DNA of 64,000 bases, from NCBI GenBank assembly GCA_020523885.1, contig JAJAPY010000019.1, forward strand, positions 586-64,585, in the 5' to 3' direction. Below, piece after piece: positions 5,762 through 40,637 of this stretch; position 1 is the first letter of the stretch; every line of letters begins with the position of its first letter. The notes under the pieces are model-generated. The model saw only the letters and a program-made list of their open reading frames with translations. It was not told the DNA's origin and ran no database searches. Origin of the DNA: Candidatus Liberimonas magnetica (lineage in GTDB: Bacteria; Elusimicrobiota; Endomicrobiia; Endomicrobiales; JAFGIL01). The position numbers and the translations under genes are program-made.

Positions 5762-5790
5762 AATAAGTAAAGCAAGTAAAGCCAGGCACG
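5762..5790 (+). repeat. shared module M3 (aataagtaaagcaagtaaagcc...)
   Basis: The first 22 nt are identical, and about 27 of 29 overall, to the reverse complement of 32625-32654. A degenerate third copy sits near 31202-31224. Confidence 0.6.
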
Positions 5791-5925
5791 TAAATCCGTA
5801 AATAGAGTTAGTGTAGTTAGAGAAGCCTGACGTGGAAATCAAGCAATGTTTATAAAAATTATTATTATCCTAGCAGTAAACCTATTTTCTATATTTATAC
5901 CTTCAAATAAAAAACTAAATCACTT

Positions 5926-7200: not shown

Positions 7201-7566
7201 ATGAATGAATATCCAAAAAAATCAGGATAAAATTGAAAGAACTTGCAGGGTTATCTTAGTCAAAGAGAACTTGATGCAGGGTTGAAATTGTTACATGAAA
7301 AATTTAATGATTGGGAGAAGGGAAAAATTGATTGTTTTGAATTAAATGAATATATACATAAATTCCATAATAGTGTATCACGTGAAATCTGGAAAAAGTA
7401 TAACCAGCCTAAAACTGGTAATTGGGGACATACAACGTTGTTTGATAATACGATATTCAAAAGTATTATATGCCATATTCAATATTGTATTTGGAAAATG
7501 GAACGGGGGGGGAAGACAGTTAAAAAGAAGAAGCAGCCTCTGCGTATACAAATAAGAAGGGTTTAA
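7201..7566 (+). pseudogene. decayed XRE-family HTH gene fused in frame to repeat-derived sequence
   Basis: Frame A gives GYLSQRELDAGLKLLHEKFNDWEKGK, with XRE HTH spacing (LSQxEL-13 aa-WExGK). Helix 1 (IRIKLKELAG) is in another frame after an A7 tract, and ATG 7201 is followed by two in-frame stops. The 3' half overlaps repeat module M2. Confidence 0.4.
7435..7469 (+). repeat. shared module M2, copy 1
   Basis: acgttgtttgataatacgatattCaaaagTattat is identical to 31155-31189 at 33 of 35 positions. Confidence 0.75.
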
Positions 7567-24583: not shown

Positions 24584-27529
24584 ATGGTTAAAAAAACAAT
24601 AGAAAAAGATAATATAAAAGAGATAGTTGAAGGCTTAAACAACGCACAAAAAGAAGCTGTGGAGCATTCTCAAGGGCCACTTCTTATAATCGCAGGCGCA
24701 GGTACCGGAAAAACCCGGGTCATAACAAGGAAAATAGCATATTTAATATCTACTAAAAAGGCAAAACCCTCCGAGATACTTGCCTTAACTTTTACGGACA
24801 AAGCAGCGACCGAGATGGAAGAACGGGTTGACCTCTTAGTGCCTTACGGGTTCAATGACGTATGGATATCCACGTTCCACGCGTTCGGGGACAGGGTCTT
24901 AAGAGAAAATGCCATAGAAATAGGCCTTTCACCGGATTTTACCATATTAAACCAGCAGGAAGCAGCGGTATTTTTCAAAGACAACCTGTTTTCTTTTGAG
25001 ATGAATTATTTCAGGCCTCTTGGAAATCCGAGCCAATATATAAATGCGCTCTTAACCGCGTTCAGTCGAGCAAAAGATGAAAATATCGGCCCAAAAGAAT
25101 ACCTGTCTTATGCAAAGAACAAAATAGCAGGCGCCAATAGCCCGGAAGAAAAAGAAGAAGCCCAGAAAAACATGGAAGTTGCCCTGGCTTATGAAAAGTA
25201 TGAAGAGTTAAAAAAGAAAAATAATTATCTTGATTTTGGCGACCAGGTGATTTTAGCGTTTAACCTTCTTAAAGAGCACCCGTCCTTGTTAAAGAAATAC
25301 CAGAATAAGTTCAAATATATCCTTGTGGACGAGTTCCAGGACACGAACTATACCCAGTTTGAGCTTGTAAAGCTTCTTGCCAAAGAACATAGAAATATAA
25401 CCGTAGTAGGAGACGACGACCAGTCTATTTATAAATTCCGCGGCGCCTGCCTTTCAAATATCCTGGGATTTAATAAAGCCTACAAAGATGCTAAACAAGT
25501 GGTTTTACGCCAGAATTACCGCTCAACTCAAGGGATATTGAACTCAGCATACAAACTTATCACCCAGAACAACCCCGAACGGCTTGAGGTAAAAAATAAG
25601 ATAAATAAAGAGCTTGTTTCAACCCGGCTTGAAGGCCCGGCTGTCGAGCATCTATATTTTGACACTCTTTCCACGGAAGCTGATGAAACGGCAAAAAGGA
25701 TAAAGGAAAAAGTTGAAAGCGGGAAATTTTCCTGGAAGGACTTTGCTATCCTTGTCCGGTCTAACGCTTCTGCAGAACCTTTTTTAAAATCTTTGAACTA
25801 TTTAAATATCCCGTGGAAATTTTCCGGCCAGGCAGGTTTATATAAACGCGAAGAGATAAGGCTTCTTCTTTCTTTTTTACGGGTAATGGCAAACCCGAAC
25901 GACTCTTTGAGCCTGCACTATTTTTCTTCAAGCGATCTCTATGATTTTGACCCTATCGATATCTCTACAGTTAACCACACGGCTTCGTATTACGGCCGCT
26001 CTATGATGGACGTGCTTAGGAATTTAGGACAGTACAAAGAGTTGTCGAGCCTAGCGGATAAAACAAAAAGCGGGATAAGTAAACTGTTGAATGACCTGGA
26101 AGAATATTACAAGATAGCTCAAAGTTCAAGAACAGGCGAGCTGTTATACAAGTTCCTTAAAAGAACTAAGATCCTTGAGCGGTTGTACAACTCAACATCT
26201 TATCTTGAAGTCGAGCAGGCGCAGAACATCGCAAAATTCTTTAAGATAATCGAGCGTTTTGGCAACATTGTATCCTATGACAGGGTCAATGCTTTTGTCG
26301 ACTATATAGATTCACTTTTATTCGTGGGCGACGACCCTACGGTAGATGAGCCGGACTTTGACCTTGATGCTGTAAACGTGCTTACCATTCATAAGGCAAA
26401 GGGCTTAGAATTTTCCGTGGTATTTATGGTGTCTCTTGTAGAAGACAGGTTCCCCTCAAGGAATAAAAGAGATTTGATAGAGCTTCCGGATGAGCTGATA
26501 AAGGATATCCTGCCGCAGGGAGATTTTCATCTCCAGGAAGAAAGGCGGCTTTTTTATGTAGGGATGACGCGCTCAAAAGACGAGCTCTACCTGACAAGCG
26601 CCCGGGATTACGGCGGAAAGCGCGCAAAAAAGGTTTCCCGTTTTGTCCTGGAAGCACTTGATAAGCCGAAAGCTGATGAAGAGGTTTTTAAATCAAGCAT
26701 CAAAGAACAGCTGGAACGGTTTGCTCCGGTAGAGCGAAAAATAGATTTTTCAAGCATTTTACCAAAAGACCAGGGGACACTGAAACTTTCCCCCTATGCC
26801 ATAGATGATTATCTTACCTGTCCGTTAAAATATAAGTATGTCCATGTCCTGCGGGTGCCTATTTTAAGGCACCATTTGCTTATTTACGGCGAAGTTATCC
26901 ATAAGGTTTTAAAGGAGTATTACAAGCAAAGAAAAGAAAACAAAAAATTCACTAAAGACGACCTCGTAGAGCTTTACAAAAAGTTCTGGTCGTCAGCCGG
27001 GTTTTTGTCCAGGGAACACGAAGAAGAACGTTTCAGGAGCGGGCAAGAAATGCTTGTAAATTATTTTAACGAGGAACAAAAAAGGGACTTCGTCCCTTTA
27101 TCCGTAGAGGAAGACTTTAAATTCATGCTTGATGATTCCGTTAAGGTTCTCGGCCGTTGGGACAGGCTTGATGAAAGGCTTGAGGAAGGAAATAAAATAA
27201 GGGTCATTGTAGATTTTAAGACAACCGCCAGGATAAAAGACCAGAAATCAGCAGATAAAGAGATAAAACAGAGCGGCCAGCTCTTAATCTACGCGCTGGG
27301 CCATAAAATGAAGTACGGAAAACTCCCTGATTATGTCGAACTCCATTTCTTAGAGCCAAACATTATTTCAAAACTAAAACCAGAAGATAAGGATATCGAT
27401 GAATTGAAAGAAAAGATAAAAACCGTAGCCTGCGGTATAAAAGCCCAGAACTTTACAGCCGAACCATCCTATATGGCATGCCAGTACTGCGCCTATTCCA
27501 ATATTTGCCCAAAACAGGAAAATAATTAA
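24584..27529 (+). CDS. UvrD/PcrA-type SF1 helicase fused to a C-terminal RecB/Cas4-like PD-(D/E)XK nuclease with Fe-S cysteines
   Basis: AGAGTGKT, VDEFQDTN, QNYRST and YVGMTRSK are helicase motifs. The C-terminus has GRWDRLD, VIVDFKT and QLLIYALG, plus Cys in YLTCPLKY and CQYCAYSNIC (C...Cx2Cx5C). Confidence 0.8.
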   Translation: MVKKTIEKDNIKEIVEGLNNAQKEAVEHSQGPLLIIAGAGTGKTRVITRKIAYLISTKKAKPSEILALTFTDKAATEMEERVDLLVPYGFNDVWISTFHAFGDRVLRENAIEIGLSPDFTILNQQEAAVFFKDNLFSFEMNYFRPLGNPSQYINALLTAFSRAKDENIGPKEYLSYAKNKIAGANSPEEKEEAQKNMEVALAYEKYEELKKKNNYLDFGDQVILAFNLLKEHPSLLKKYQNKFKYILVDEFQDTNYTQFELVKLLAKEHRNITVVGDDDQSIYKFRGACLSNILGFNKAYKDAKQVVLRQNYRSTQGILNSAYKLITQNNPERLEVKNKINKELVSTRLEGPAVEHLYFDTLSTEADETAKRIKEKVESGKFSWKDFAILVRSNASAEPFLKSLNYLNIPWKFSGQAGLYKREEIRLLLSFLRVMANPNDSLSLHYFSSSDLYDFDPIDISTVNHTASYYGRSMMDVLRNLGQYKELSSLADKTKSGISKLLNDLEEYYKIAQSSRTGELLYKFLKRTKILERLYNSTSYLEVEQAQNIAKFFKIIERFGNIVSYDRVNAFVDYIDSLLFVGDDPTVDEPDFDLDAVNVLTIHKAKGLEFSVVFMVSLVEDRFPSRNKRDLIELPDELIKDILPQGDFHLQEERRLFYVGMTRSKDELYLTSARDYGGKRAKKVSRFVLEALDKPKADEEVFKSSIKEQLERFAPVERKIDFSSILPKDQGTLKLSPYAIDDYLTCPLKYKYVHVLRVPILRHHLLIYGEVIHKVLKEYYKQRKENKKFTKDDLVELYKKFWSSAGFLSREHEEERFRSGQEMLVNYFNEEQKRDFVPLSVEEDFKFMLDDSVKVLGRWDRLDERLEEGNKIRVIVDFKTTARIKDQKSADKEIKQSGQLLIYALGHKMKYGKLPDYVELHFLEPNIISKLKPEDKDIDELKEKIKTVACGIKAQNFTAEPSYMACQYCAYSNICPKQENN

Positions 27530-27538
27530 TTCAGGTCA

Positions 27539-27575
27539 CATTGAAAATTCGGTGGCAAAGACCGAATTTTCAATG
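27539..27575 (+). terminator. terminator-like hairpin after the helicase gene (no T run)
   Basis: Perfect 15-bp stem cattgaaaattcggt/accgaattttcaatg with a 7-nt loop. A second 8-bp hairpin (atcgttca/tgaacgat) follows. Confidence 0.45.
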
Positions 27576-27683
27576 TAAAACTGTTCATTGTAATGTTCTT
27601 ATCGTTCATTATATTGAACGATGGGATTTTGAAGATTCTCCACTTTATTATTGCTTTTTTTTGCACAACAATTTAGGCAACGC

Positions 27684-27712
27684 TTGACAATCCAATTTCA
27701 AAGAATTACAAT
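27684..27712 (+). promoter_or_regulatory. sigma70-like promoter
   Basis: TTGACA (27684-27689), 17-bp spacer, TACAAT (27707-27712); 58 nt upstream of the ATG at 27770. Confidence 0.55.
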
Positions 27713-27769
27713 CTAACCATACTTGCCAAATATACTCCACACTGACTTTATTCAGCCAATTATTGAATA

Positions 27770-28267
27770 ATGAATGACAAACAAAAGTTAAAACTTATTC
27801 TCATAACAGGTCTTGTTTGCACCGCTCTTGGCGGATGGCTCCTGCATTTACGAATTCACACCATTCAAAGCAATCCATCAAACTATCTTCCATTTTTATC
27901 GGGCATATTCAGCATAATAATTCTGCCGTTAATGTTCTATTTCAGGCCAACAGTTACCTATGCCTATATCCTAAACGGAATGACCGTAATAATAGGCACT
28001 ATAACAATGGCGCATTTTTCGATAGCCAACCTGCCGCCGGAAATAACCTTAGGTACTATTATTTTAAGAACAACATTCGCAGACATAATGCTTCTTTTTA
28101 CAAAACTTTTTATAGGAAAAGCCATATTCGACCTCAACACTTATAACCCCGAAGGAAGTTCCACCATAAAAGGCAGGTTTTTCAGGTATCCGAATATGGG
28201 TTTCTGGTGGGTGCATTTGTTTGCCATGTCCGTCGTTTACACTCTCGGACATGTTTTGTGGAGGTAA
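27770..28267 (+). CDS. polytopic membrane protein, unknown function
   Basis: 165 aa with about 5 hydrophobic helices. The C-terminal helix is FFRYPNMGFWWVHLFAMSVVYTLGHVLWR. Confidence 0.55.
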   Translation: MNDKQKLKLILITGLVCTALGGWLLHLRIHTIQSNPSNYLPFLSGIFSIIILPLMFYFRPTVTYAYILNGMTVIIGTITMAHFSIANLPPEITLGTIILRTTFADIMLLFTKLFIGKAIFDLNTYNPEGSSTIKGRFFRYPNMGFWWVHLFAMSVVYTLGHVLWR

Positions 28268-28270
28268 TAA

Positions 28271-28366
28271 ATGTTCAGGTTCATGCTTTTTAAACCCGGC
28301 TGGTGGATACTGCATATACTTATGATAATTTTCATGTTCTGGCTCGGGCATGTAATAAGGTTTTAA
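28271..28366 (+). CDS. 31-aa single-helix membrane peptide (not in the ORF track)
   Basis: MFRFMLFKPGWWILHILMIIFMFWLGHVIRF starts 1 nt after the TAATAA of the upstream gene. It repeats that gene's last helix (FRx..GWW.H...LGHV). Confidence 0.5.
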   Translation: MFRFMLFKPGWWILHILMIIFMFWLGHVIRF

Positions 28367-28443
28367 CATATAAGTAAGGTACTTGCTTCCGAGATTACTA
28401 AGGAAAGATAGTATACTTAGTGAAGCTTGATGATATGGCTGAC

Positions 28444-28459
28444 ACCATATGGTATAAAT
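28444..28459. promoter_or_regulatory. palindrome ACCATATGGT fused to TATAAAT upstream of the STAND gene
   Basis: accatatggtataaat equals the right arm of the MNT operator (accataaacatggtataaat) minus 4 nt. TGGTATAAA resembles an extended -10 element. It ends 24 nt before the STAND ATG at 28483. Confidence 0.45.
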
Positions 28460-28482
28460 TATTTGTTTGAAAGTGAGGGAAA

Positions 28483-31140
28483 ATGAAGATAATTGAACTA
28501 ATGAAACAAAGAATTCAAGATGAAGGTAATGATTCAGATTTTACAAGATTCTATAATAATATGTTATATGGTGAAATGGTAATAAAATGGATTGTTTGTG
28601 GTATTGCGGCAGGAATTGAAGATGATGTAGATAGAAATCAATATCAGATTTACTACAATCTAATACGCTCAAATGCAATCGGTGACTGGGTAACTAATCT
28701 AGAGAAGATATTGCAACAGCTGCCTTCTCAATATCTAATTGAAGAGGTAAAAATAAAAGAAAGGAAGGAATTAACAGAAAAAGTTGGAAGTGGAAAATGG
28801 CAGTATGAAATGGCTTTGTCTATATTTCAGTGTTTGAATTCCTTAGATGAAAGCACGGACAATTTGCCAACTAAAGTAGATGCATTAGAGTGGTTTAGAA
28901 GATTTGTAACATTAAGAAATAAATTTAGGGGTCATGGGGCACAGAGAGGGGCTAAATGTGCTGAGTTGTGTGAAATGTTAGAAAACTCTATTGATATTCT
29001 AGTAAACAACTTCATATTGTTTAAACGACCATGCGTATTTTTATACAGAAATCTATCAAAAAAATATAGGGTGTCTCAAATTTCAGAAAGTAATGATTAC
29101 TTTGAGAGCTTAAAAACTGAAGAAGGAAAAAAATGTAATTATGAAGATGGTATTTTTATAGCTTTTGGTACAGATATAAATATTATCAAATTAGTAGAAT
29201 CCGATGCTGATCTAAGTGATTTCTATTTTTCAAATGGGCAATATAATGACAAAAATTGTGATTATGAGATGCTTTCTTATATAACAGGAAATAAAATAAG
29301 AAATATCGATAATTTTTATACTGTACCTATTGAAACGCTCCCAAAAAGTGAAACATCAAGTATGGGTGAGTTAGATGTATTTCATAATAATGTGTTTTCA
29401 AATATTCCAACACAAAGACCTGGCTATATCAAGCGTTTAGAGTTGGAAAATCAACTAAAAGAGCAATTATTATTAACAGAAAGACATCCAATAATAACGT
29501 TACAAGGTAAGGGAGGGATTGGAAAGACAACTCTTGCATTACAAGTGCTACACGAGATTGCGCAAAGCCCTTATATACCTTACAAGATGATAATATGGCT
29601 GAGTGCAAGAGATATTGATTTGACTTCAGAAGGACCAAAAGCTGTTAAGCCTGATGTGATTTCAAAAAAGCAATTTTCAAAAGAATATGCACTTTTAGTT
29701 TTGGGAAAGAATAAAGCTAAAGGGATGAATTATGAGGAATATTTTTCTTCACAATTAAGCAAGGGGGCATTGGGCCCAACTCTTTTTATATTTGACAATT
29801 TTGAAACAGTAGAAAATCCATTTGATGTGTTTAAATATCTTGATTCTTTTATTAGACTACCTAATAAAATATTGATTACTACTAGAATAAGAGATTTTAA
29901 AGCAGATTATCCTTTAATAGTGTCAGGAATGACAAAGAATGAAAGCTTCCAGTTAATTGAAAATATAAGTAATGAAATTGGATTAAGTCAATTATTGCAC
30001 GAAGAATATAAGCTTGAGTTATATAAAGAATCAGGGGGACATCCATATATTATAAAAATACTTTTAGGGGAATGTGCTAAGAAAAAACAATTAGTTAAAC
30101 CAGATATAGTATTACAAGATTTAGACAAGCTATTAGATGCTCTGTTTGAAAGAAGTTATATAAATCTATCAAAAGCTGCCCAAAGAATATTTTTACTTCT
30201 TTGTTCTTGGAAGTCCGCAATACCTGAAATCGCACTGGAGTTAGCGATGTTGTCTGCTAGAGAGAAAATAGATGTTTCAGAAACTCTTAATGAGCTTGTT
30301 AATAGTTCTTTTATTGAAGAAGAAGTTTCAGAAAATGACAATTTTTATTATGCTCCTTTAGCAGCATTAACTTTTGGTAAAAGAAAATTGAAGGTAAGCT
30401 CTTTGAAGGCAATTGTTGAAGTAGATTCAATCTTTCTTCAGAAATTTGGAGTAACGAAGAGCGCTGAAATTAAAAAAGGGATTCTTCCTAAAATCAATAG
30501 ATTTGTTAGAAAAGTGGCTGAAGAAATAAGTAGTGGGACAACTAGTCTGGCTGCGCATAAAAATAATTTTGACTATATTGCTTCAAAAGTGCCCCAAGCT
30601 TGGCTAAGCATCGCAAAATTATATAAAGAACAAGATAATTTAGATAATGCAATTGAAACTACTAGGAAATATCTAGAAAGAGAAGATGGAGAAGAAGGTA
30701 AGCTAAAGGCATGGGAAGAATTAACTAAATTATATGAATTAAAGAAAGATTACAAAAATGAATTGCTAACACTTGTCGAAATATCGCAAAACAGAAAGTT
30801 GCAATTGTATGATTTGTCCAATATTGTAAATAGAATAATTATTTTATGCAAAACGCTAAAGGATTTAGACCGAACCTCAGCTTTTGAGGTAGAGGAAAAG
30901 AAGTTGATGTTAAAAAAAGTTATAACTGTAATAGAGTTAAGAGATGATGAGCTTGATCCTACAGACTGTTCGCGAGTAGCATGGTTATTCTTAAATATTG
31001 GCGATACTAAAAAAGCATTAGATTATGCAAAAAAAGGCTTAGACATCGATAAGGCAAATTATTATTGTAGAAGTCTTATTGAGCGTATTGATAAAGAATA
31101 TAGGGGGCGAACGAGAAAAGGTGACAAAGTTGTAGAGTAG
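28483..31140 (+). CDS. STAND NTPase of NB-ARC/AP-ATPase type with unassigned N-terminal domain and C-terminal helical repeats
   Basis: P-loop GKGGIGKTTLA, Walker B LFIFDNFE, ILITTR, and GGHPYII (GLPL-like). The first 330 aa or so are unassigned. Much more AT-rich than its neighbours (15/60 G+C at 28483-28542 against 27/60 at 26401-26460, hand counts). Confidence 0.8.
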   Translation: MKIIELMKQRIQDEGNDSDFTRFYNNMLYGEMVIKWIVCGIAAGIEDDVDRNQYQIYYNLIRSNAIGDWVTNLEKILQQLPSQYLIEEVKIKERKELTEKVGSGKWQYEMALSIFQCLNSLDESTDNLPTKVDALEWFRRFVTLRNKFRGHGAQRGAKCAELCEMLENSIDILVNNFILFKRPCVFLYRNLSKKYRVSQISESNDYFESLKTEEGKKCNYEDGIFIAFGTDINIIKLVESDADLSDFYFSNGQYNDKNCDYEMLSYITGNKIRNIDNFYTVPIETLPKSETSSMGELDVFHNNVFSNIPTQRPGYIKRLELENQLKEQLLLTERHPIITLQGKGGIGKTTLALQVLHEIAQSPYIPYKMIIWLSARDIDLTSEGPKAVKPDVISKKQFSKEYALLVLGKNKAKGMNYEEYFSSQLSKGALGPTLFIFDNFETVENPFDVFKYLDSFIRLPNKILITTRIRDFKADYPLIVSGMTKNESFQLIENISNEIGLSQLLHEEYKLELYKESGGHPYIIKILLGECAKKKQLVKPDIVLQDLDKLLDALFERSYINLSKAAQRIFLLLCSWKSAIPEIALELAMLSAREKIDVSETLNELVNSSFIEEEVSENDNFYYAPLAALTFGKRKLKVSSLKAIVEVDSIFLQKFGVTKSAEIKKGILPKINRFVRKVAEEISSGTTSLAAHKNNFDYIASKVPQAWLSIAKLYKEQDNLDNAIETTRKYLEREDGEEGKLKAWEELTKLYELKKDYKNELLTLVEISQNRKLQLYDLSNIVNRIIILCKTLKDLDRTSAFEVEEKKLMLKKVITVIELRDDELDPTDCSRVAWLFLNIGDTKKALDYAKKGLDIDKANYYCRSLIERIDKEYRGRTRKGDKVVE

Positions 31141-31154
31141 GGGAACGGAGAGGG

Positions 31155-31189
31155 ACGTTGTTTGATAATACGATATTGAAAAGGATTAT
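31155..31189 (+). repeat. shared module M2, copy 2
   Basis: acgttgtttgataatacgatattGaaaagGattat, 33 of 35 identical to 7435-7469; starts 15 nt after the STAND stop. Confidence 0.75.
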
Positions 31190-31258
31190 GCGTTAAAATC
31201 CAAATAAGTAATGGTGCCAGGCATGACTTATGTGACTTATTGGATGTTCGGTGTCAGG

Positions 31259-31307
31259 CCCTCCTTCGCTAAAGCTACGGAAGGACACAGCTTGCCTAAT
31301 AACTCTT
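31259..31307 (+). repeat. shared module M4 (hairpin followed by GGACACAGCTT..TAATAAYT), copy 1
   Basis: tccttc-gctaaagctacg-gaagga-cacagcttgcctaataactc. Related copies lie at 32957-33000 and 35286-35332. Confidence 0.6.
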
Positions 31308-31352
31308 ACACGGATTCAGTTGATGCTCCACACCCTTTCAGCAATGTGTGAC

Positions 31353-31378
31353 GCCAACATCCACTTCCGCAATGGATG
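31353..31378 (+). repeat. shared module M5 (gccaacatcca..aatggatg hairpin), copy 1
   Basis: gccaacatccaCtTccgCaatggatg, 23 of 26 identical to 33415-33440. Stem is catcca/tggatg. Confidence 0.65.
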
Positions 31379-31578
31379 CCGGCCATCCGACTGTTTGAAT
31401 GCCTGTGCCTGGCTTGACTAAATGAACCAATGAATTACTAGAGATTGCGGCCGTGTCTATAAAAGTCACGATAGTTAGTGCAATTGAAAAAGTAATTTGG
31501 ATTTATTAAAAGGCCTTATCTATCACGACGCGATTTTTATCTGATTGTTAAATTAAGTATCAAGTATTAAAAATATTA

Positions 31579-31607
31579 TTGACATCTTACCATGTTTATG
31601 GTATATT
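31579..31607 (+). promoter_or_regulatory. sigma70-like promoter of the MNT-HEPN operon
   Basis: TTGACA (31579-31584), exact 17-bp spacer, TATATT (31602-31607). Confidence 0.6.
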
Positions 31608-31625
31608 TATACCATAAACATGGTA
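31588..31625. promoter_or_regulatory. perfect 18+2+18 bp palindrome (candidate operator) across the -10 element
   Basis: taccatgtttatggtata tt tataccataaacatggta. Each arm itself contains ACCAT-N4-ATGGT. Confidence 0.65.
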
Positions 31626-31644
31626 TAAATAGGATGTAGGGAAA

Positions 31645-32193
31645 ATGATATTTAATCTTCGTTCTAAAATCACCAGGAAAATACTTAATTTTTTCTTTCT
31701 AAACGATAAATCCAGGGTTTACGTTAATGAAATAGCCCGCCAGATCGAAGAAGAACCAAAGAATGTGTATAGGATATTAATCCGCCTTGAGGACTCAGGA
31801 ATACTAACCAGTGAGTTTTCGGGGCGTGAAAGGTATTTTACGGCAAACTTAAAAAGCAGCCTCTTAAAAGAATATAAAACCATTTTCATGAAAACTTCGG
31901 GTATTGAATCAATGCTAAAAAAAGCAGTAACGAAAAGACCTGAAATAAAAGAAGCTTTTATTTATGGGTCCTATGCAAGCGGGAAATATAAGCCGGGAAG
32001 CGATATTGACCTCTTGCTGGTAGGCAATCACAAAAGCATGGATGCTCAAAAAATGATTTTTGACCTGCAAAAAACGTCAGGCAGTGAGATAAATGTCATT
32101 AATATTACCCCTGAAAACTTTAATAATAAAAAAACGGAAAAGGACCAGTTGATATCTTCTATTTTTTCCGGGAAAGTAATAAAACTATTATGA
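31645..32193 (+). CDS. winged-HTH fused to a minimal nucleotidyltransferase (MNT-type antitoxin-like)
   Basis: N-terminal wHTH-like segment VYVNEIARQIEEEPKNVYRILIRLEDSGIL, then NTase signature GSYASGKYKPGSDIDLLLVG. The stop overlaps the next ATG (ATGA). Confidence 0.7.
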   Translation: MIFNLRSKITRKILNFFFLNDKSRVYVNEIARQIEEEPKNVYRILIRLEDSGILTSEFSGRERYFTANLKSSLLKEYKTIFMKTSGIESMLKKAVTKRPEIKEAFIYGSYASGKYKPGSDIDLLLVGNHKSMDAQKMIFDLQKTSGSEINVINITPENFNNKKTEKDQLISSIFSGKVIKLL

Positions 32194-32576
32194 AATTTGA
32201 CAAAAATCATTTTATTGAGCAGAAATTTACACCTAATGAGCTTGAAAAGATACGGAAATCTGCCAAACGAAACATGGAGTTAGCAGGCTCAAGCAGTGCC
32301 CCTGAAATAATTTTTCATTTCTCATACATGGCTCTTATAAAAATTGGTATTTACTGTATAGCCAAAGAAGGATACAGGGTTAAAAGTCGGCCTGGCCACC
32401 ATGTAAAAATAATTGAAGCTCTTAGCCAAATCTTGGGATCAAAAGATATTTTGATTGCCGGAGATAAAATGCGCAAAGACAGGAATATCGATCTTTATAG
32501 CGGGGATGCCGTAATTGACGTGAAAGAAGCCGAAGAGTATTATGAAATAGTTAAGCAGTTTGTTAATACAATCTAA
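32190..32576 (+). CDS. HEPN-domain protein (toxin-like partner of MNT)
   Basis: 128 aa, predicted helical, MRKDRNIDLYSGD matches my recollection of the HEPN R-N-x-x-x-Y/H region. 4-nt overlap with the NTase gene. Confidence 0.55.
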   Translation: MKFDKNHFIEQKFTPNELEKIRKSAKRNMELAGSSSAPEIIFHFSYMALIKIGIYCIAKEGYRVKSRPGHHVKIIEALSQILGSKDILIAGDKMRKDRNIDLYSGDAVIDVKEAEEYYEIVKQFVNTI

Positions 32577-32624
32577 AGTTGTCGTTACCCGTCTAAAATC
32601 AGTGCGGAAATAGCGGCCTAATTG

Positions 32625-32654
32625 CGTGTCAGGCTTTACTTGCTTTACTTATTC
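32625..32654 (-). repeat. shared module M3, inverted copy
   Basis: The reverse complement gaataagtaaagcaagtaaagcctgacacg matches 5762-5790. Confidence 0.6.
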
Positions 32655-32674
32655 AGGGCTCGAATAGGGAAATT

Positions 32675-32956: not shown

Positions 32957-33000
32957 CCCCTTCTACGCTGAAGCTACGAAGGGCACAGCTTAATAATTTT
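32957..33000 (+). repeat. shared module M4, copy 2
   Basis: cccttc-tacgctgaagctac-gaaggg-cacagcttaataatttt. The stem base pair differs from copy 1 in a compensatory way (t-a becomes c-g). Confidence 0.6.
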
Positions 33001-33035: not shown

Positions 33036-33413
33036 ATGATAAAAAAGAAAAAATCACCATTGATTGCGGCTTTGCTGTCGGCTTTTGCGTTTCCTGGACT
33101 CGGGCAGGTGTATGCGAAGTGCTATGCCAAAGGCTTGATATTCATCGTTATAACTATGATACTCTTCATTTCCATCGCCGTGCCTCTAATTACAATTGCC
33201 TCATCGTATGCTTCTGAAATGGCAAACTTAGAATCCATGAGCCCATCTAAATTCACCATGCCAAATGATGGCAGGATAAAATGGTTTTCCATTCTTCTGA
33301 CCGTTGCATGGATTATTTCCATAGTTGACGCCTGGTCCTGCGCAAAAAGATTGAACAAGCAAATAAGTATATCAGCTTCAGTTGATGTCCCTCCCCCTCC
33401 CGGCAAGGCATGA
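33036..33413 (+). CDS. small membrane protein, unknown function
   Basis: 125 aa with FPGLGQVY motif, 3 hydrophobic segments and a Pro-rich tail. Confidence 0.5.
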   Translation: MIKKKKSPLIAALLSAFAFPGLGQVYAKCYAKGLIFIVITMILFISIAVPLITIASSYASEMANLESMSPSKFTMPNDGRIKWFSILLTVAWIISIVDAWSCAKRLNKQISISASVDVPPPPGKA

Positions 33414-33414
33414 T

Positions 33415-33440
33415 GCCAACATCCATTCCCGTAATGGATG
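33415..33440 (+). repeat. shared module M5, copy 2
   Basis: gccaacatccaTtCccgTaatggatg starts 2 nt after the TGA of the upstream gene. Confidence 0.65.
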
Positions 33441-36267: not shown

Positions 36268-39054
36268 ATGGCTAAAAAGTATGTGTATTCTTTTGGGAAC
36301 GGAAAAGCTGACGGAAACGAAAGTATGAAGAACCTGCTTGGCGGCAAAGGCGCCAACCTGGCAGAGATGGCCGGACATAAAGACCTGAGACTCCCTGTAC
36401 CGCCGGGGTTTACCATAACGACCGAAGTCTGTACCGTTTATTATAAGAACAAGAAAAAATTTCCCGGGGAGCTTAAAAGCCAGGTAAACGCAGCCCTTAA
36501 AAAAATTGAAGCTATAATGGGAAAAAGATTCGGAGACGCTCAAGACCCGCTTCTTGTTTCCGTACGTTCCGGCGCAAGAAAGTCTATGCCGGGAATGATG
36601 GATACCGTATTAAATGTCGGCCTTAACGATATAACGGTCCAGGGCCTTATTAAGATGACGAACAACCCGCGTTTTGCTTATGACGCATACCGCAGGCTTG
36701 TAATGATGTACGCAGATGTGGTCATGGAAAAAGCCGAAGGCCGCGAACCTGCCAGAGGAAAGGGCATACGCAAATTAATGGATGAGAAGCTTGAAGAAGT
36801 TAAGCACTCAAAAGGATATAAGATAGACACTCAGCTTACCACTGAAGATTTAAAATCGCTCGTAGCCCTTTTTAAGGATATGATAAAAGCAGAACTTGGC
36901 CAGCCGTTTCCGGAAAAACCCGAGGACCAGTTATGGGGCGGGATAGGCGCTGTATTTATGTCCTGGAACGGAAAACGCGCTATTGAATACCGCCGGATCG
37001 AACACATTCCAGATGAATGGGGAACAGCTGTGAACGTCCAGACAATGGTGTTCGGCAATATGGGAGATGACTCAGCTACGGGTGTTGCTTTCACAAGGAA
37101 CCCGGGTAACGGCGAAGCTTATTTTTACGGCGAATACCTTGTAAATGCACAAGGTGAGGACGTAGTTGCAGGTATACGCACCCCTGCGCCGATAAATGAA
37201 TTATCAAAAAATGACCAGAGCAGGAACTTGCCGTCGTTAGAAAAAATAATGCCGAATATCTATACCGAACTTTTTGATATACAGAAACGCCTTGAAAAGC
37301 ACTACCAGGACATGCAGGATATAGAGTTTACCATAGAAAAAGGCAAGCTCTTCATGCTTCAGTGCCGCATAGGAAAAAGAAACGGCGCTGCTGCTGTACG
37401 CATGGCCGTAGATATGTATAAAGAAAAAGCGATCGATGCATCAACTGCTGTAATGAGAGTTCCTGCATCGCAGTTGGTAGAGCTGCTTCTGCCCATGATA
37501 GACCCGAAAGTGGAGGCAGGTACCAAGATTATAGCAAAAGGGCTTCCTGCCGGCCCGGGCGGCGCTATAGGCCGCGTGGTGTTCAGTTCACATGATGCAG
37601 TAGCCTGGGCAGCGAAGGGAGAAAAAGTAATTTTAGTCCGCGAAGAAACATCTCCTGAAGATGTAGACGGTATGCATAAAGCGCAGGCAATCCTTACTTT
37701 GAAAGGCGGTATGACATCGCATGCGGCGCTTGTTGCAAGAGGTTGGGGTAAATGCTGCGTAGTAGGCTGCAGCGACCTTTCGATTGCAGACGATCAAAAA
37801 TCGTTTACTACAAAAAGCGGTACAACGGTCAAAGAAGGCGACTGGATATCTCTTAACGGTACGAAAGGAACGGTTTATGCCGTAAAGCTTCCTCTTGTTG
37901 ACCCTGACCTTGAGCACAATACGGCTTATAAAGAGCTTATGAAACTTGTTGATAAGGCTCGTACTATGAAGATACGTACTAATGCTGACACTCCGAAAGA
38001 TGCAAAGAAAGCCATAGAGTTTGGAGCCGAAGGCATAGGGCTTTTCAGGACAGAGCATATGTTTTACGGCGAAGGAAGCGATAAACCGTTGTTTTTGCTC
38101 CGCAAAATGATAATGTCTAAAACCCTTGAAGAACGAAAAGCCGCTTTAAAGGAGCTTTCCGTGTTCGTGAAAGGAGATATTAAAGCTACCATGGAAGTAC
38201 TTAACGGTTTTCCTGTCACTGTAAGACTCCTTGACCCGCCGCTGCATGAGTTTGTACCGCACAGCGAAGACAAGATAGCGGATATGGCAAAGGAACTAGG
38301 TATAACTGTAGAAGAAGCAAAAAAGCGCGGAGACGGTTTAAAAGAATCTAACCCGATGCTGGGCCACAGAGGAGTAAGACTTGGAATAACTTACCCCGAA
38401 GTAACAGAAATGCAGGTAAGAGCGATACTTGAAGCAGCAGGCGAGCTTATCAAAGCAGGAAAAAAAGCTGTTCCGGAAATAATGATACCGGTAACCTGCA
38501 CTGTAAATGAATTAAACGATCAAAAAGTCATAGTCGAAAAAGTCCACCAGGAAGTAGAGAAAGCGCTCAGAGTTAAAATACCTTATATGTACGGTACAAT
38601 GATAGAGATACCAAGAGCAGCTCTTCTTGCAAACAAGATGGCTGAAACAGCCGAGTTTTTCTCATTCGGGACAAATGACCTTACACAGATGACCTTTGGT
38701 TTTTCAAGGGACGATATAGGTTCATTTTTACCAGATTATCTTACATCCAAGATACTCCCGGTAGACCCGTTCCAGACCATAGACAAAGAAGGCGTCGGAG
38801 AACTTATGGATATGGGGATCCAGCGCGGGCGCTCGGTAAAAAAGAACCTTAAAGTCGGTATTTGCGGAGAACACGGCGGTGACGCTGATTCAGTCAAGTT
38901 TTGCCACCGTATAGGCATGGACTATGTTTCCTGTTCGCCGTTCCGTGTGCCGATCGCAAGGCTTGCCGCAGCTCAAGCAGCTATCGAAAGCAGTGTTTCA
39001 AAAAAACAAAAATCCAAGAGTTCAAAAAAGCTTACTGCAGCCGGCAAAAGATAA
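36268..39054 (+). CDS. ppdK: pyruvate, phosphate dikinase
   Basis: 928 aa with GGKGANLAEM, phospho-His motif GGMTSHAALVARG, and C-terminal GICGEHGGD. Confidence 0.95.
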   Translation: MAKKYVYSFGNGKADGNESMKNLLGGKGANLAEMAGHKDLRLPVPPGFTITTEVCTVYYKNKKKFPGELKSQVNAALKKIEAIMGKRFGDAQDPLLVSVRSGARKSMPGMMDTVLNVGLNDITVQGLIKMTNNPRFAYDAYRRLVMMYADVVMEKAEGREPARGKGIRKLMDEKLEEVKHSKGYKIDTQLTTEDLKSLVALFKDMIKAELGQPFPEKPEDQLWGGIGAVFMSWNGKRAIEYRRIEHIPDEWGTAVNVQTMVFGNMGDDSATGVAFTRNPGNGEAYFYGEYLVNAQGEDVVAGIRTPAPINELSKNDQSRNLPSLEKIMPNIYTELFDIQKRLEKHYQDMQDIEFTIEKGKLFMLQCRIGKRNGAAAVRMAVDMYKEKAIDASTAVMRVPASQLVELLLPMIDPKVEAGTKIIAKGLPAGPGGAIGRVVFSSHDAVAWAAKGEKVILVREETSPEDVDGMHKAQAILTLKGGMTSHAALVARGWGKCCVVGCSDLSIADDQKSFTTKSGTTVKEGDWISLNGTKGTVYAVKLPLVDPDLEHNTAYKELMKLVDKARTMKIRTNADTPKDAKKAIEFGAEGIGLFRTEHMFYGEGSDKPLFLLRKMIMSKTLEERKAALKELSVFVKGDIKATMEVLNGFPVTVRLLDPPLHEFVPHSEDKIADMAKELGITVEEAKKRGDGLKESNPMLGHRGVRLGITYPEVTEMQVRAILEAAGELIKAGKKAVPEIMIPVTCTVNELNDQKVIVEKVHQEVEKALRVKIPYMYGTMIEIPRAALLANKMAETAEFFSFGTNDLTQMTFGFSRDDIGSFLPDYLTSKILPVDPFQTIDKEGVGELMDMGIQRGRSVKKNLKVGICGEHGGDADSVKFCHRIGMDYVSCSPFRVPIARLAAAQAAIESSVSKKQKSKSSKKLTAAGKR

Positions 39055-39350
39055 AATATTGTTCCGGCAATAGAAAATCAAAAATGGAAGGTTTTCTAAA
39101 GCCGGAAAACAAATATAAAAGGCTTAGTTAAAGAGGGGGGCAATTAGGTATTGGAGCTTCTTCTTTAATTTATGGTATCAAACAACATTTCCTTTCATAT
39201 ATGGATTATTTTATCTTGCCATCAGGCTTATCCGACGAGCATTGATTTTAATAAATCTTAGTAATATTTTTATTAAATTCGGTTTTTAAAAAATATCACA
39301 ACTTTTTCAAATCTTTTGCACAATTTTGCAGTAAAAATAATAATTAATTC

Positions 39351-39387
39351 GAAGTCGGCCTTCCCCCCAAGGCCGGCTTCTTTTTTT
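39351..39387 (+). terminator. strong rho-independent terminator about 300 nt after the ppdK stop
   Basis: gaagtcggcctt cccccc aaggccggcttc: 12-bp stem with 1 mismatch, followed by T7. Confidence 0.7.
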
Positions 39388-39485
39388 CTACAAGCCCGAT
39401 GCAAATCTATTTTATTGTCGTTTTATTTGCCGTATCTTATGTTTTTGACAACCACTAATTTAAAATATAAGATATAGTCAAATTT

Positions 39486-40637
39486 ATGAAACAAAAACAA
39501 TTAAAAGATGACCTTAAGTTTAAACATAAGATATCACTGTCGTTGTTTTTGATCTTAACACTTACCATCCCTTTTTATTTGATGGGGTGGCCTACTAAAA
39601 TGGGCCCTTATAAACCGGACTGGGGTTACTTTTTAGGGCTTGTTTGTTTAAGTGCGTTATTGTTATATCTATTATACAGACTTAACGCGGAGATCCCGGA
39701 TTATTTTAAGAAAATAGTATTTTTGAACATATTTTTATTATATTTTGGGATAGTTTTTTCTCTTTTGGCAGGTGAAGCGTATATAAGAGCCTTAAAGATA
39801 GCTGAATGCAGAGGAGGACAGGGCCCCTTACAGCCTGATTTCGGCCTGTCAAAATACAAGCTTAACTCCCTTGGTTTCCGCGGGCCGGAACATAATATAG
39901 CAAAAGAAAAAGGAAAATTAAGGGTCATCGCGCTTGGAGACTCGCAGGTGTTCGGGCAGGGAGTCGAATGGCAGGACACGTTTCTGGAACAGCTTAAGAC
40001 CATATTAGATATAAATACCGGACAAACGTTTGAAACTATAAATTTCGGAAAATGCGGCTGGAACACGATAAATGAACAGGTATTTTTCATAAAACAGGGT
40101 GCATATTATAAACCCGACATTTTAATACTCCTATACACATTGAACGACCCTGAATTTGACGGATATTCCTACAAACCCTTTTTTAATAGCAGTTTTGAAG
40201 TTAAATATCTCTGGAGGTCGCACCTCTATTTCTTTCTTATAAAACTTTATAACCAGCTCAAATTCCCTTACGAGGATTATATAATAAACCTTTTTAAGGA
40301 CGGATCCGAGACCGCCCAATACTGCGGACTTGCTTTAAAAAACATAGCTAGCACATGCAGGAATAACAACATTAGGCCGCTGCTTGTCATAACACCGCTT
40401 TTTAAGGATTTGAAAAACTATCCGTTTGTAGAAATCCATTCAAAAGTAAGAAAGTGGGGCGAAAACTGCGGTTTTTATGTGATAGACCTGCTGCCTGAGT
40501 TTGCCTCGCGTTCAAAAACAGGAAAAGAGTTCAGGGTAAGCCGCGAAGACTGGCATCCGAACAAGGAAGGCCACAGCATTATAGCAAAAGCAGTCGGAAA
40601 TAAAATATTAGAAGATAGATTGTATTCAAAGCCCTGA
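39486..40637 (+). CDS. membrane-anchored SGNH/GDSL hydrolase
   Basis: 3 N-terminal hydrophobic helices, then VIALGDSQVFGQG (block I), FGKCGWNT (II), LLYTLNDP (III) and EDWHPNKEGH (V). Confidence 0.7.
   Translation: MKQKQLKDDLKFKHKISLSLFLILTLTIPFYLMGWPTKMGPYKPDWGYFLGLVCLSALLLYLLYRLNAEIPDYFKKIVFLNIFLLYFGIVFSLLAGEAYIRALKIAECRGGQGPLQPDFGLSKYKLNSLGFRGPEHNIAKEKGKLRVIALGDSQVFGQGVEWQDTFLEQLKTILDINTGQTFETINFGKCGWNTINEQVFFIKQGAYYKPDILILLYTLNDPEFDGYSYKPFFNSSFEVKYLWRSHLYFFLIKLYNQLKFPYEDYIINLFKDGSETAQYCGLALKNIASTCRNNNIRPLLVITPLFKDLKNYPFVEIHSKVRKWGENCGFYVIDLLPEFASRSKTGKEFRVSREDWHPNKEGHSIIAKAVGNKILEDRLYSKP

Follow-up and report, generated by a model that had tools for sequence, protein, structure and literature searches.

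The island at positions 28367 to 32576 of a 64-kb stretch of DNA from Candidatus Liberimonas magnetica (contig JAJAPY010000019.1, positions 586 to 64,585 of the forward strand; the whole stretch is called the window) contains three co-oriented genes that encode a STAND NTPase, a minimal nucleotidyltransferase (MNT) carrying a winged helix-turn-helix (wHTH) domain, and a HEPN-superfamily partner. These genes are likely to represent two independent conflict modules, a STAND gene and an MNT/HEPN pair, that were acquired separately and became neighbours by chance of insertion. The STAND protein is an Apaf-1/CED-4-type NB-ARC and TPR protein that belongs to a widespread, horizontally scattered family and adds an uncharacterised new member to the Avs-like AP-ATPases. 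As a system the locus is ordinary, being a small defence island that combines a known candidate cassette with an uncharacterised NLR-like gene. A preliminary description of this DNA had suggested that all three genes might form one regulated module, with the wHTH of the MNT protein possibly controlling both promoters. The three co-oriented open reading frames (ORFs) of that description are present in the ORF calls, as is the ATGA overlap of the MNT and HEPN ORFs (32190-32193, 4 bp). The coordinates of all features are collected in Table 1.

The genomic contexts of the two modules have been compared using 80 STAND loci from species-representative genomes (out of 279 confirmed stretches), 9 STAND loci from IMG/VR viral contigs, and 87 MNT loci, 7 of which were obtained via four close homologues (58-72% identical) and 80 via a metagenome scan. 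Searches with tblastn and a family hidden Markov model (HMM) located no HEPN partner near the STAND homologues (0/80 genome loci, 0/9 viral loci), and these loci hold only two marginal, generic nucleotidyltransferase matches, both kilobases away. Likewise, tblastn and HMM searches found no STAND gene near the MNT homologues (0/87 loci, 39 of which have at least 3 kb of upstream sequence). The HEPN partner is adjacent to MNT in 70 of the 73 loci with room downstream. Clustering of neighbouring ORFs revealed no recurrent gene cluster beside STAND, as the best cluster is present in 6/80 loci. The 142 immediate neighbours of STAND are mostly ordinary genes and include N6_Mtase/Eco57I (4), type I S subunits (2), GmrSD (2), ArdC (2), and integrases or transposases (~7). 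STAND is found as a single gene in a variable context that holds defence and mobile genes, and the close MNT homologues are flanked by unrelated housekeeping genes. The proposal of one regulated module is not supported as a system by this comparison, since no STAND homologue examined, genomic or viral, has an MNT/HEPN pair beside it, which is the outcome that the preliminary description itself had named as refuting.

The base composition of the island also distinguishes the modules. The STAND gene has a G+C content of 0.312 and a third-codon-position G+C content (GC3) of 0.226, and its G+C content is the lowest of all 2.66-kb stretches of the window. The corresponding values are 0.346 and 0.366 for the MNT gene and 0.359 and 0.341 for the HEPN gene, compared to 0.39-0.43 and 0.42-0.45 for the flanking genes and a G+C content of 0.402 for the entire window. 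The low G+C content initially reported for the first gene is therefore correct in direction (0.312 vs 0.39-0.43), but the size of the contrast was exaggerated by hand counts. The spacer between the modules is a mosaic of pieces found again elsewhere in the window. The piece at 31155-31189 resembles 7435-7469 (33/35 identical), the piece at 31259-31293 resembles a hairpin at 32958-32991, and the piece at 31315-31378 resembles 33377-33440, which corresponds to the 3' end and downstream flank of a 125-aa gene (33036-33413). The latter two pieces are collinear with the region downstream, without the body of the 125-aa gene, and thus have the appearance of a decayed duplicate of the hairpin and 3'-end flanks of this gene. 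The different GC3 values and the 420-bp host-like spacer of repeated pieces suggest two separate acquisitions or a rearrangement, rather than one mobile unit.

The assignment of the second and third genes to a wHTH-nucleotidyltransferase and a HEPN partner, as originally proposed, is supported by Pfam, PADLOC, relatives that match PF05168, and a PDB profile. The MNT protein matches Pfam NTP_transf_2 (5e-13) and weak HTH families, as well as the PADLOC model PDC-M05A (PDLC04368; 6.6e-38), and the HEPN protein matches PDC-M05B (PDLC04379; 2.9e-17). Consequently, the pair is not a new combination, as it is already catalogued in PADLOC as the two-gene candidate PDC-M05. This candidate has been described as an archaea-enriched, toxin-antitoxin-like pair of a nucleotidyltransferase and a HEPN protein (PMC12988326). 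One such cassette was reported to protect E. coli B from at least one phage, with M05A annotated as an ArsR-like HTH joined to a KNTase-like nucleotidyltransferase (bioRxiv 10.1101/2024.09.26.614923). The catalytic motif hG[GS]x9-13Dx[DE] is present in the MNT protein, with G108, S109, D120, I121, D122, and E148 invariant or nearly so among 44 homologues. The score of the NCBIfam model MntA_antitoxin on this protein (32.2 bits) is below its cut-off of 60. The IMG/VR viral contigs yielded no member of the MNT family. A gene with DUF4062 and HATPase_c_4 domains is located ~7 kb upstream of one MNT/HEPN cassette (L083/L084 1-675); in a 2026 preprint, DUF4062 is renamed as an immune NADase domain.

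The HEPN protein itself has no Pfam match, and its membership of the HEPN superfamily is established only via PF05168 and UPF0332 relatives. The PF05168 HEPN family is matched by 13/42 relatives of the protein, and a search with the family profile retrieves PDB 9xbd, 9xbc, and 2hsb, which are UPF0332/HEPN structures. An alignment of 42 sequences indicates that Y46, R98, and Y103 are invariant and that R95, N99, G69, and H71 are nearly invariant. The Rx4-6H RNase motif is absent, as the corresponding sequence is R98-N99-x3-Y103 and all 42 sequences possess a Tyr instead of the His. The presence of an invariant Tyr where HEPN RNases have a His bears on how this HEPN branch is neutralised. The structures 9xbd and 9xbc (both "HEPN domain-containing protein") differ by a Tyr vs a Phe at the position aligned with Y103 (RNRSDY vs RNRSDF), and the Tyr at this position has evidently been probed by others. 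Domains of the PDC-M05B type are also observed within larger proteins, including P0178 (764 aa), P0197 (410 aa), P0204 (605 aa), P0213 (360 aa), and P0256 (988 aa, match 783-899), where the domain sits at either end of the large fusions. These fusions might indicate what a PDC-M05B-type domain works with.

The MNT/HEPN pair is preceded by the best sigma-70-like site in the 28-33 kb region (11/12 matches in a -35/-10 scan), and the operator array is interleaved with this promoter. The two operator palindromes build an 18+18 nt perfect inverted repeat (31588-31605/31608-31625) that was not spelled out in the preliminary description. The same organisation is present in every PKN-type MNT homologue, wherein TTGACA is followed after ~17 nt by a half-site fused to the -10 element (ATGGTAtAAT) and then by TACCAT-N4-ATGGTA, often with further half-sites trailing. 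Across the 562 kb of MNT loci, ACCAT-N4-ATGGT occurs at 45 sites ≤200 nt from MNT starts, together with one N8 site and none with other spacers; elsewhere in these loci there are only five background sites, with spacers of 1 or 7. N0 sites are absent both from these loci and from the 1.4 Mb of STAND loci, and no secondary operator sites were found near any other MNT cassette. In one MNT homologue that is 66% identical (L087 5187-5363 and 5228-5321; L088 116-209), the whole promoter/operator unit is tandemly duplicated upstream, and the second copy is spanned by a called ORF of 58 aa.

The sequence of the half-site varies with that of the recognition helix, as determined from about 80 loci. The half-site TACCA accompanies the helix motif xKN in 27 loci, TACAC is found alongside KRN in 10 loci, and TACAA alongside x[G/A/S]N in 21 loci. 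Conservation of the operator, together with this covariation, is strong comparative evidence for its role as the cassette's own autoregulatory element, and recognition of ACCAT..ATGGT by the MNT wHTH is very probable. These results offer a clear, testable operator model for PDC-M05, in which TACNNT-N4-ANNGTA arrays lie over the promoter, and a recognition code in which the half-site carries CC, AA, or AC according to whether the wHTH recognition helix has Lys (Lys39 of the PKN motif in this protein), Gly/Ala, or Arg. Neither the operator architecture nor the covariation was found worked out for PDC-M05 in the literature examined.

A related motif precedes the STAND gene. The pattern ACCAT-N0-4-ATGGT occurs exactly 3 times in the window (28444, 31589, and 31611), in each case before STAND or MNT, compared to an expectation of 0.29 per window (shuffle mean), and 0/100 shuffles reach 3. 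The reported ACCAT(N0/N4)ATGGTATAAAT motif before both transcription units is therefore real and non-random, and it is not a common motif, as the window has these 3 sites only. The exact 11-mer ATGGTATAAAT is confined in the window to the STAND and MNT upstream regions and overlaps the -10 element in both. Furthermore, two of the three copies of GGGAAAATG in the window are at the STAND and MNT starts, and the start regions GTGAGGGAAAATG and GTAGGGAAAATG are alike. Local alignment of the two 100-nt upstream regions gives a score of 27, which is reached by 10/2000 shuffles and is tied, against the MNT upstream region, by 1 of the 44 other upstream regions of the window. Taken as a whole the similarity of the upstream regions is suggestive, and it is the palindrome that constitutes the specific signal. 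Single half-site hexamers are frequent (29 in the window).

The STAND site differs from the family operator in its geometry. The putative STAND promoter, which is recognised by its TGnTATAAA pattern and is absent from the output of the simple -35/-10 scan, consists of TG (28450-28451), TATAAA (28453-28458), and a weak -35 element (ATGATA, 28430-28435). The site within it (cACCAT-N0-ATGGTA, as opposed to TACCAT-N4-ATGGTA at the MNT promoter) contains one perfect half-site and one that matches at 5/6 positions, and the 4-bp spacer is gone, placing the half-site centres ~6 bp apart vs ~10 bp at the family operator. Consequently, a dimer could not bind this site as it binds the N4 operator, and the two promoters do not possess the same operator. 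The suggestion that the wHTH controls both promoters is accordingly retained in part, as operator binding is very probable at the pair, but the spacing at the STAND site is not that of the family (N4, 45/45). Set beside its MNT counterpart, the STAND promoter looks like a compressed copy of the form TGACA[-5]ACCAT[-4]ATGGTATAwwT. The motif is peculiar to this one locus, and it is reasonably likely to be a short piece of MNT-type promoter/operator DNA that was captured or has decayed by small deletions. Genuine non-canonical cross-repression seems unlikely, and chance combined with shared -10 constraints has a similarly low, or slightly lower, probability.

It is improbable that the shared motif is a coincidence that arose because both genes use an AT-rich extended -10 element (TGnTATAAT) and purine-rich ribosome-binding sites, with the extra ACCAT added by chance. 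The STAND sequence TGgTATAAA is near the extended -10 consensus, one of the 44 control regions equals the STAND region in its alignment score against the MNT upstream region, and half-site hexamers are frequent, as would be expected under this explanation. Nevertheless, the full motif is seen nowhere else in the window, N0 palindromes are absent from 2 Mb of comparison loci, and chance would less easily produce a pair of shared blocks in collinear order (operator/-10 and start region), consistent with the few shuffles that reach the alignment score.

The single regulated module, in which the MNT wHTH would repress both promoters through ACCAT..ATGGT and make expression of the STAND sensor depend on the state of MNT/HEPN, has a rather small probability. 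Confinement of the motif to these two promoters within 64 kb, the identical 11-mer over both -10 elements, and the similar start regions are in accord with this idea, as are the very probable recognition of TACCAT half-sites by the wHTH and the position of the STAND palindrome over the spacer and -10 element, where binding would repress. These points are countered by co-occurrence in 0 of 176 related loci and by the N0 spacing, which would place the two half-sites on different faces of the helix. In addition, one STAND half-site is imperfect (cACCAT), the other MNT cassettes lack nearby secondary operator sites, and lone half-site hexamers are common.

The first gene was previously recognised as a STAND NTPase from the motifs GKGGIGKTTLA, LFIFDNFE, ILITTR, and GGHPYII. 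All of these are present, and Pfam NB-ARC (PF00931) matches aa 323-538 above its cut-off (43.7 bits vs 23.5; E 2.6e-11). The Walker A, Walker B, sensor-1 Arg (TTR), and GxP (GGHPY) motifs are conserved, and the residues G342, G344, G345, G347, K348, T349, D438, T466, R468, G519, H520, and P521 are invariant in 30 homologues. The full-length AlphaFold model has a predicted local distance difference test (pLDDT) score of 85.7, and Foldseek searches of the PDB with this model identify 6MFV (2.8e-10), Apaf-1 (7e-10), CED-4 (1e-8), and RPP1 (2e-7), with further matches to Dark and to plant NLRs including ZAR1 (overall E 1e-10 to 1e-5). The C-terminal TPR-like region, which is presumed to be the sensor, has TPR_8, TPR_1, and TPR_2 matches at aa 704-737 and 829-859, all under the gathering scores. 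The profile of the whole STAND family yields only generic TPR and P-loop matches among PDB sequences, and NCBIfam gives nothing relevant.

The N-terminal domain, which is presumed to be the effector, is as conserved as the NTPase and contains an invariant R145-N146-x4-H151 motif (nt 28915-28935) along with invariant W106 and W137. The domain is confidently modelled by AlphaFold (pLDDT 90, predicted TM-score 0.87). The model has no match in the PDB by Foldseek (best E 0.36), no Pfam family is found in any of 23 members, and no relative is found among PDB sequences. The R-N-x4-H motif is compatible with the Rx4-6H pattern of HEPN proteins. Searches for further signs that the domain belongs to this superfamily, made with Pfam (23 members), the PDB profile, Foldseek, and hhalign against the HEPN family of the neighbouring gene, are all negative. 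A ~870-aa NB-ARC and TPR family with a confidently modelled, unmatched N-terminal domain is a candidate new effector for the cataloguing of Avs proteins.

Members of the STAND family are sparsely and widely distributed. More than 760 full-length relatives were scored, and the best 120 of these share 38-44% identity over 93-99% of the length and come from many phyla (bar one 100%-identical copy). The family has members in 279 stretches among 185,579 species genomes (GTDB) in >15 phyla, and its phyletic pattern is star-like and patchy, with a uniform 35-44% identity across these phyla. Nine full-length or partial genes of the family are found on IMG/VR viral contigs (L171-L179). This distribution, the viral copies, the enrichment of restriction-modification, GmrSD, ArdC, integrase, and transposase genes among the neighbours, the location in an AT-rich island beside a defence candidate, and the absence from the Pfam results of a DNA-binding domain, or of any other output domain that regulatory STANDs usually have, make it quite unlikely that the protein is a housekeeping or regulatory ATPase (MalT/AfsR-like signalling) rather than an immune sensor, with its low G+C content reflecting recent transfer only. 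That alternative draws on the unmatched PADLOC Avs1-5/bNACHT models, on an N-terminal domain without a recognised toxic fold, on immediate neighbours that elsewhere are mostly ordinary metabolic genes, and on a survey of STAND proteins in which non-defence clades are interspersed among the defence clades in a total of 589 clades (PMC13581612).

Several points weigh against two independent conflict modules as the account of this island. No close relative of the genome was found, and a search for an empty site by way of the 165-aa membrane protein encoded next to the island led to a nearest homologue with 60% identity that lacks synteny; consequently, the order and independence of the two insertions are inferred from composition and the spacer. 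None of the Avs1-5/bNACHT models of PADLOC-DB 2.0 is matched by the STAND protein, for which the only match is a spurious TRIP13 P-loop hit (E 0.009). The mechanism of the STAND family is drawn by analogy with Avs, Apaf-1, and NLR proteins, and the HEPN-like reading of its N-terminal domain is a lead provided by the R-N-x4-H motif alone. Finally, pure chance is an unlikely source of the motif before the STAND gene (estimated probability ~1e-3 to 1e-4), in which a 10-bp palindrome of the neighbour's half-sites is fused to an identical 11-mer that includes the -10 element, and this makes some local link, historical or functional, likely.

If the island indeed consists of two conflict modules, each would function separately. 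In the STAND protein, the C-terminal TPR-type repeats would bind a trigger, probably a phage protein, following which the NB-ARC domain would exchange nucleotide and oligomerise. The clustered N-terminal domains would then become active on a cellular target, possibly RNA if the R-N-x4-H motif forms a catalytic, HEPN-like RNase centre, and growth arrest or death of the infected cell would abort the infection. In the PDC-M05 module, the nucleotidyltransferase probably keeps the HEPN partner inactive, by analogy with HepT/MntA, with Y103 of the R-N-x3-Y motif as the likely site of nucleotidylylation. By sitting on the operator array, which extends from the -35/-10 spacer over the transcription start, the wHTH would repress its own operon. 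Once the MNT protein is lost, the HEPN protein would be set free and repression of the operon would end. It is doubtful that the PDC-M05 wHTH-nucleotidyltransferase was co-opted in this Elusimicrobia lineage as a repressor of STAND via the compressed N0 operator. If it was, loss or titration of MNT on infection would de-repress a second, independent immune sensor, and transcription of an Avs-like gene would be gated by a toxin-antitoxin-type module. It is a separate part of this reading that the N-terminal domain of STAND would represent a new effector fold.

Table 1. Features of the STAND and MNT/HEPN island and its left flank (positions in the window)
Feature	Positions	Strand	Description
Small ORF	28271-28366	+	31 codons; encodes MFRFMLFKPGWWILHILMIIFMFWLGHVIRF; GGAGG Shine-Dalgarno
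STAND 5' region	28367-28482	+	Extended -10-like promoter; Shine-Dalgarno-like GAGGG before ATG
ACCATATGGTATAAAT	28444-28459	+	24 nt before STAND start
STAND-promoter palindrome, ACCAT abutting ATGGTATAAAT	28444-28459	+	10-bp palindrome, spacer 0, fused to -10
STAND ORF	28483-31140	+	885 aa
STAND N-terminal domain	28483-29418	+	aa 1-312; helical aa 1-181, beta-rich aa 184-280
NB-ARC (AP-ATPase type) NTPase	29449-30096	+	aa 323-538; Walker A GKGGIGKT, Walker B LFIFDNFE, ILITTR, GGHPY
Winged-helix/helical linker and C-terminal TPR-like repeats	30097-31140	+	aa 539-885; all-helical in model
Host-like spacer between modules	31141-31560	none	420 bp, G+C 0.419
MNT/HEPN promoter	31579-31607	+	TTGACA, 17 nt, TATATT; TG before -10
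Operator array	31588-31625	+	Two TACCAT-N4-ATGGTA palindromes, 31588-31603 and 31610-31625
ACCATGTTTATGGTATAT	31589-31606	+	Before MNT start
ACCATAAACATGGTATAAAT	31611-31630	+	Before MNT start
wHTH-nucleotidyltransferase (MNT) ORF, PDC-M05A	31645-32193	+	182 aa; wHTH aa 1-80 (PKNVYRIL recognition helix) and minimal nucleotidyltransferase
HEPN ORF, PDC-M05B	32190-32576	+	128 aa; HEPN-superfamily partner (PF05168/UPF0332 type); R98-N-x3-Y103 at nt 32481-32498

Because a conserved small ORF ends at 28366, the island has a well-defined left boundary at 28366/28367. This ORF begins 3 nt past the stop codon of the gene for the 165-aa membrane protein and is kept in place in a distant Elusimicrobia relative (L169 8560-8655) as MFRFMLFKPLWWVLHIAAVVFMFWLGHIVRF, with conservative and synonymous changes. 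The ORF probably encodes a real small membrane protein, and the antisense 101-aa ORF that is called in a Logan contig (28064-28369) is for this reason probably spurious. The contig in question (SRR16235686, L081, 4.8 kb) corresponds to window positions 26812-31620, is the only identical contig, and provides an independent assembly from the same strain. It terminates exactly within the 18+18 nt operator palindrome, as assemblies typically do at inverted repeats.

Short duplicated intergenic pieces are also observed beyond the spacer. The segment at 32622-32653 resembles the reverse complement of 5762-5793 (29/32), and 32577-32674 is also among the regions with such pieces, which may represent either repeats dispersed in the host genome or remnants of a rearrangement. 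The sequences at 31251-31266 and 32626-32641 (GTGTCAGGC...) were considered as direct repeats bounding the MNT/HEPN cassette and were discarded, as 13/16 matches is too weak and the more extensive pattern of duplicated host intergenic pieces is better supported. An Rfam scan (E≤1) of the island and window identified no family, including in the ~500-bp gap between the STAND and MNT genes, and a tRNA scan of the same sequences identified no tRNA and thus no integration-site tRNA. A second sharp dip in G+C content (0.30) is present at 39000-39750, in a ~430-bp gap between an ORF ending at 39054 and an ORF starting at 39486.

Comparison with known systems places the two modules in different groups. 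The MNT/HEPN pair is similar to PDC-M05 in that both models are matched, the architecture is the same, and the genes are adjacent, co-oriented, and overlapping. Nothing essential differs, other than that the member described here is bacterial (Elusimicrobia) and the family was reported as archaea-enriched (PMC12988326). The pair also resembles the type VII HepT/MntA system, as it combines a minimal nucleotidyltransferase with an intact GS...DxD motif and a small HEPN-superfamily partner. In HepT/MntA, the MNT protein AMPylates a tyrosine beside the RNase motif (PMC7641770, PMC11586414). In contrast to HepT/MntA, the HEPN protein belongs to the PF05168/UPF0332 branch rather than being a DUF86 HepT, an invariant Tyr replaces the catalytic His of Rx4-6H, and the MNT protein bears an N-terminal wHTH.

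The STAND protein shares with Avs and other bacterial NLR proteins a tripartite layout, made up of an N-terminal domain, a STAND NTPase, and C-terminal helical repeats. Similar to Avs, it is encoded by a single gene that has no conserved partner and is horizontally scattered, with some copies on viral contigs. In contrast to the Avs proteins, it matches none of the PADLOC Avs1-5 or bNACHT models, its NTPase is of the Apaf-1/CED-4/plant-NLR (NB-ARC) type, the repeat region that follows the NTPase is short (~340 aa), and the N-terminal domain could be matched to no known effector fold. The order of a nucleotide-binding domain, a helical domain, and a winged helix, followed by repeats, is shared with the Pyrococcus horikoshii STAND-TPR protein (6MFV), Apaf-1, and CED-4. 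The sequence identity to these proteins is only 13-17%, and the global TM-scores are low (~0.2) because the domains are arranged differently. Furthermore, the N-terminal domain of Apaf-1 and CED-4 is a CARD, which is unrelated to that of the STAND protein. Proteins in which a Swt1/Abi2-type HEPN domain is joined to a STAND ATPase and TPR repeats, such as Npun_F6454, have been described (Anantharaman et al. 2013, PMC3710099). The STAND protein would have the same domain order provided that its R-N-x4-H motif is a HEPN centre, and differs from these HEPN-STAND-TPR proteins in that its N-terminal domain shows no HEPN match by Pfam, hhalign, or Foldseek.

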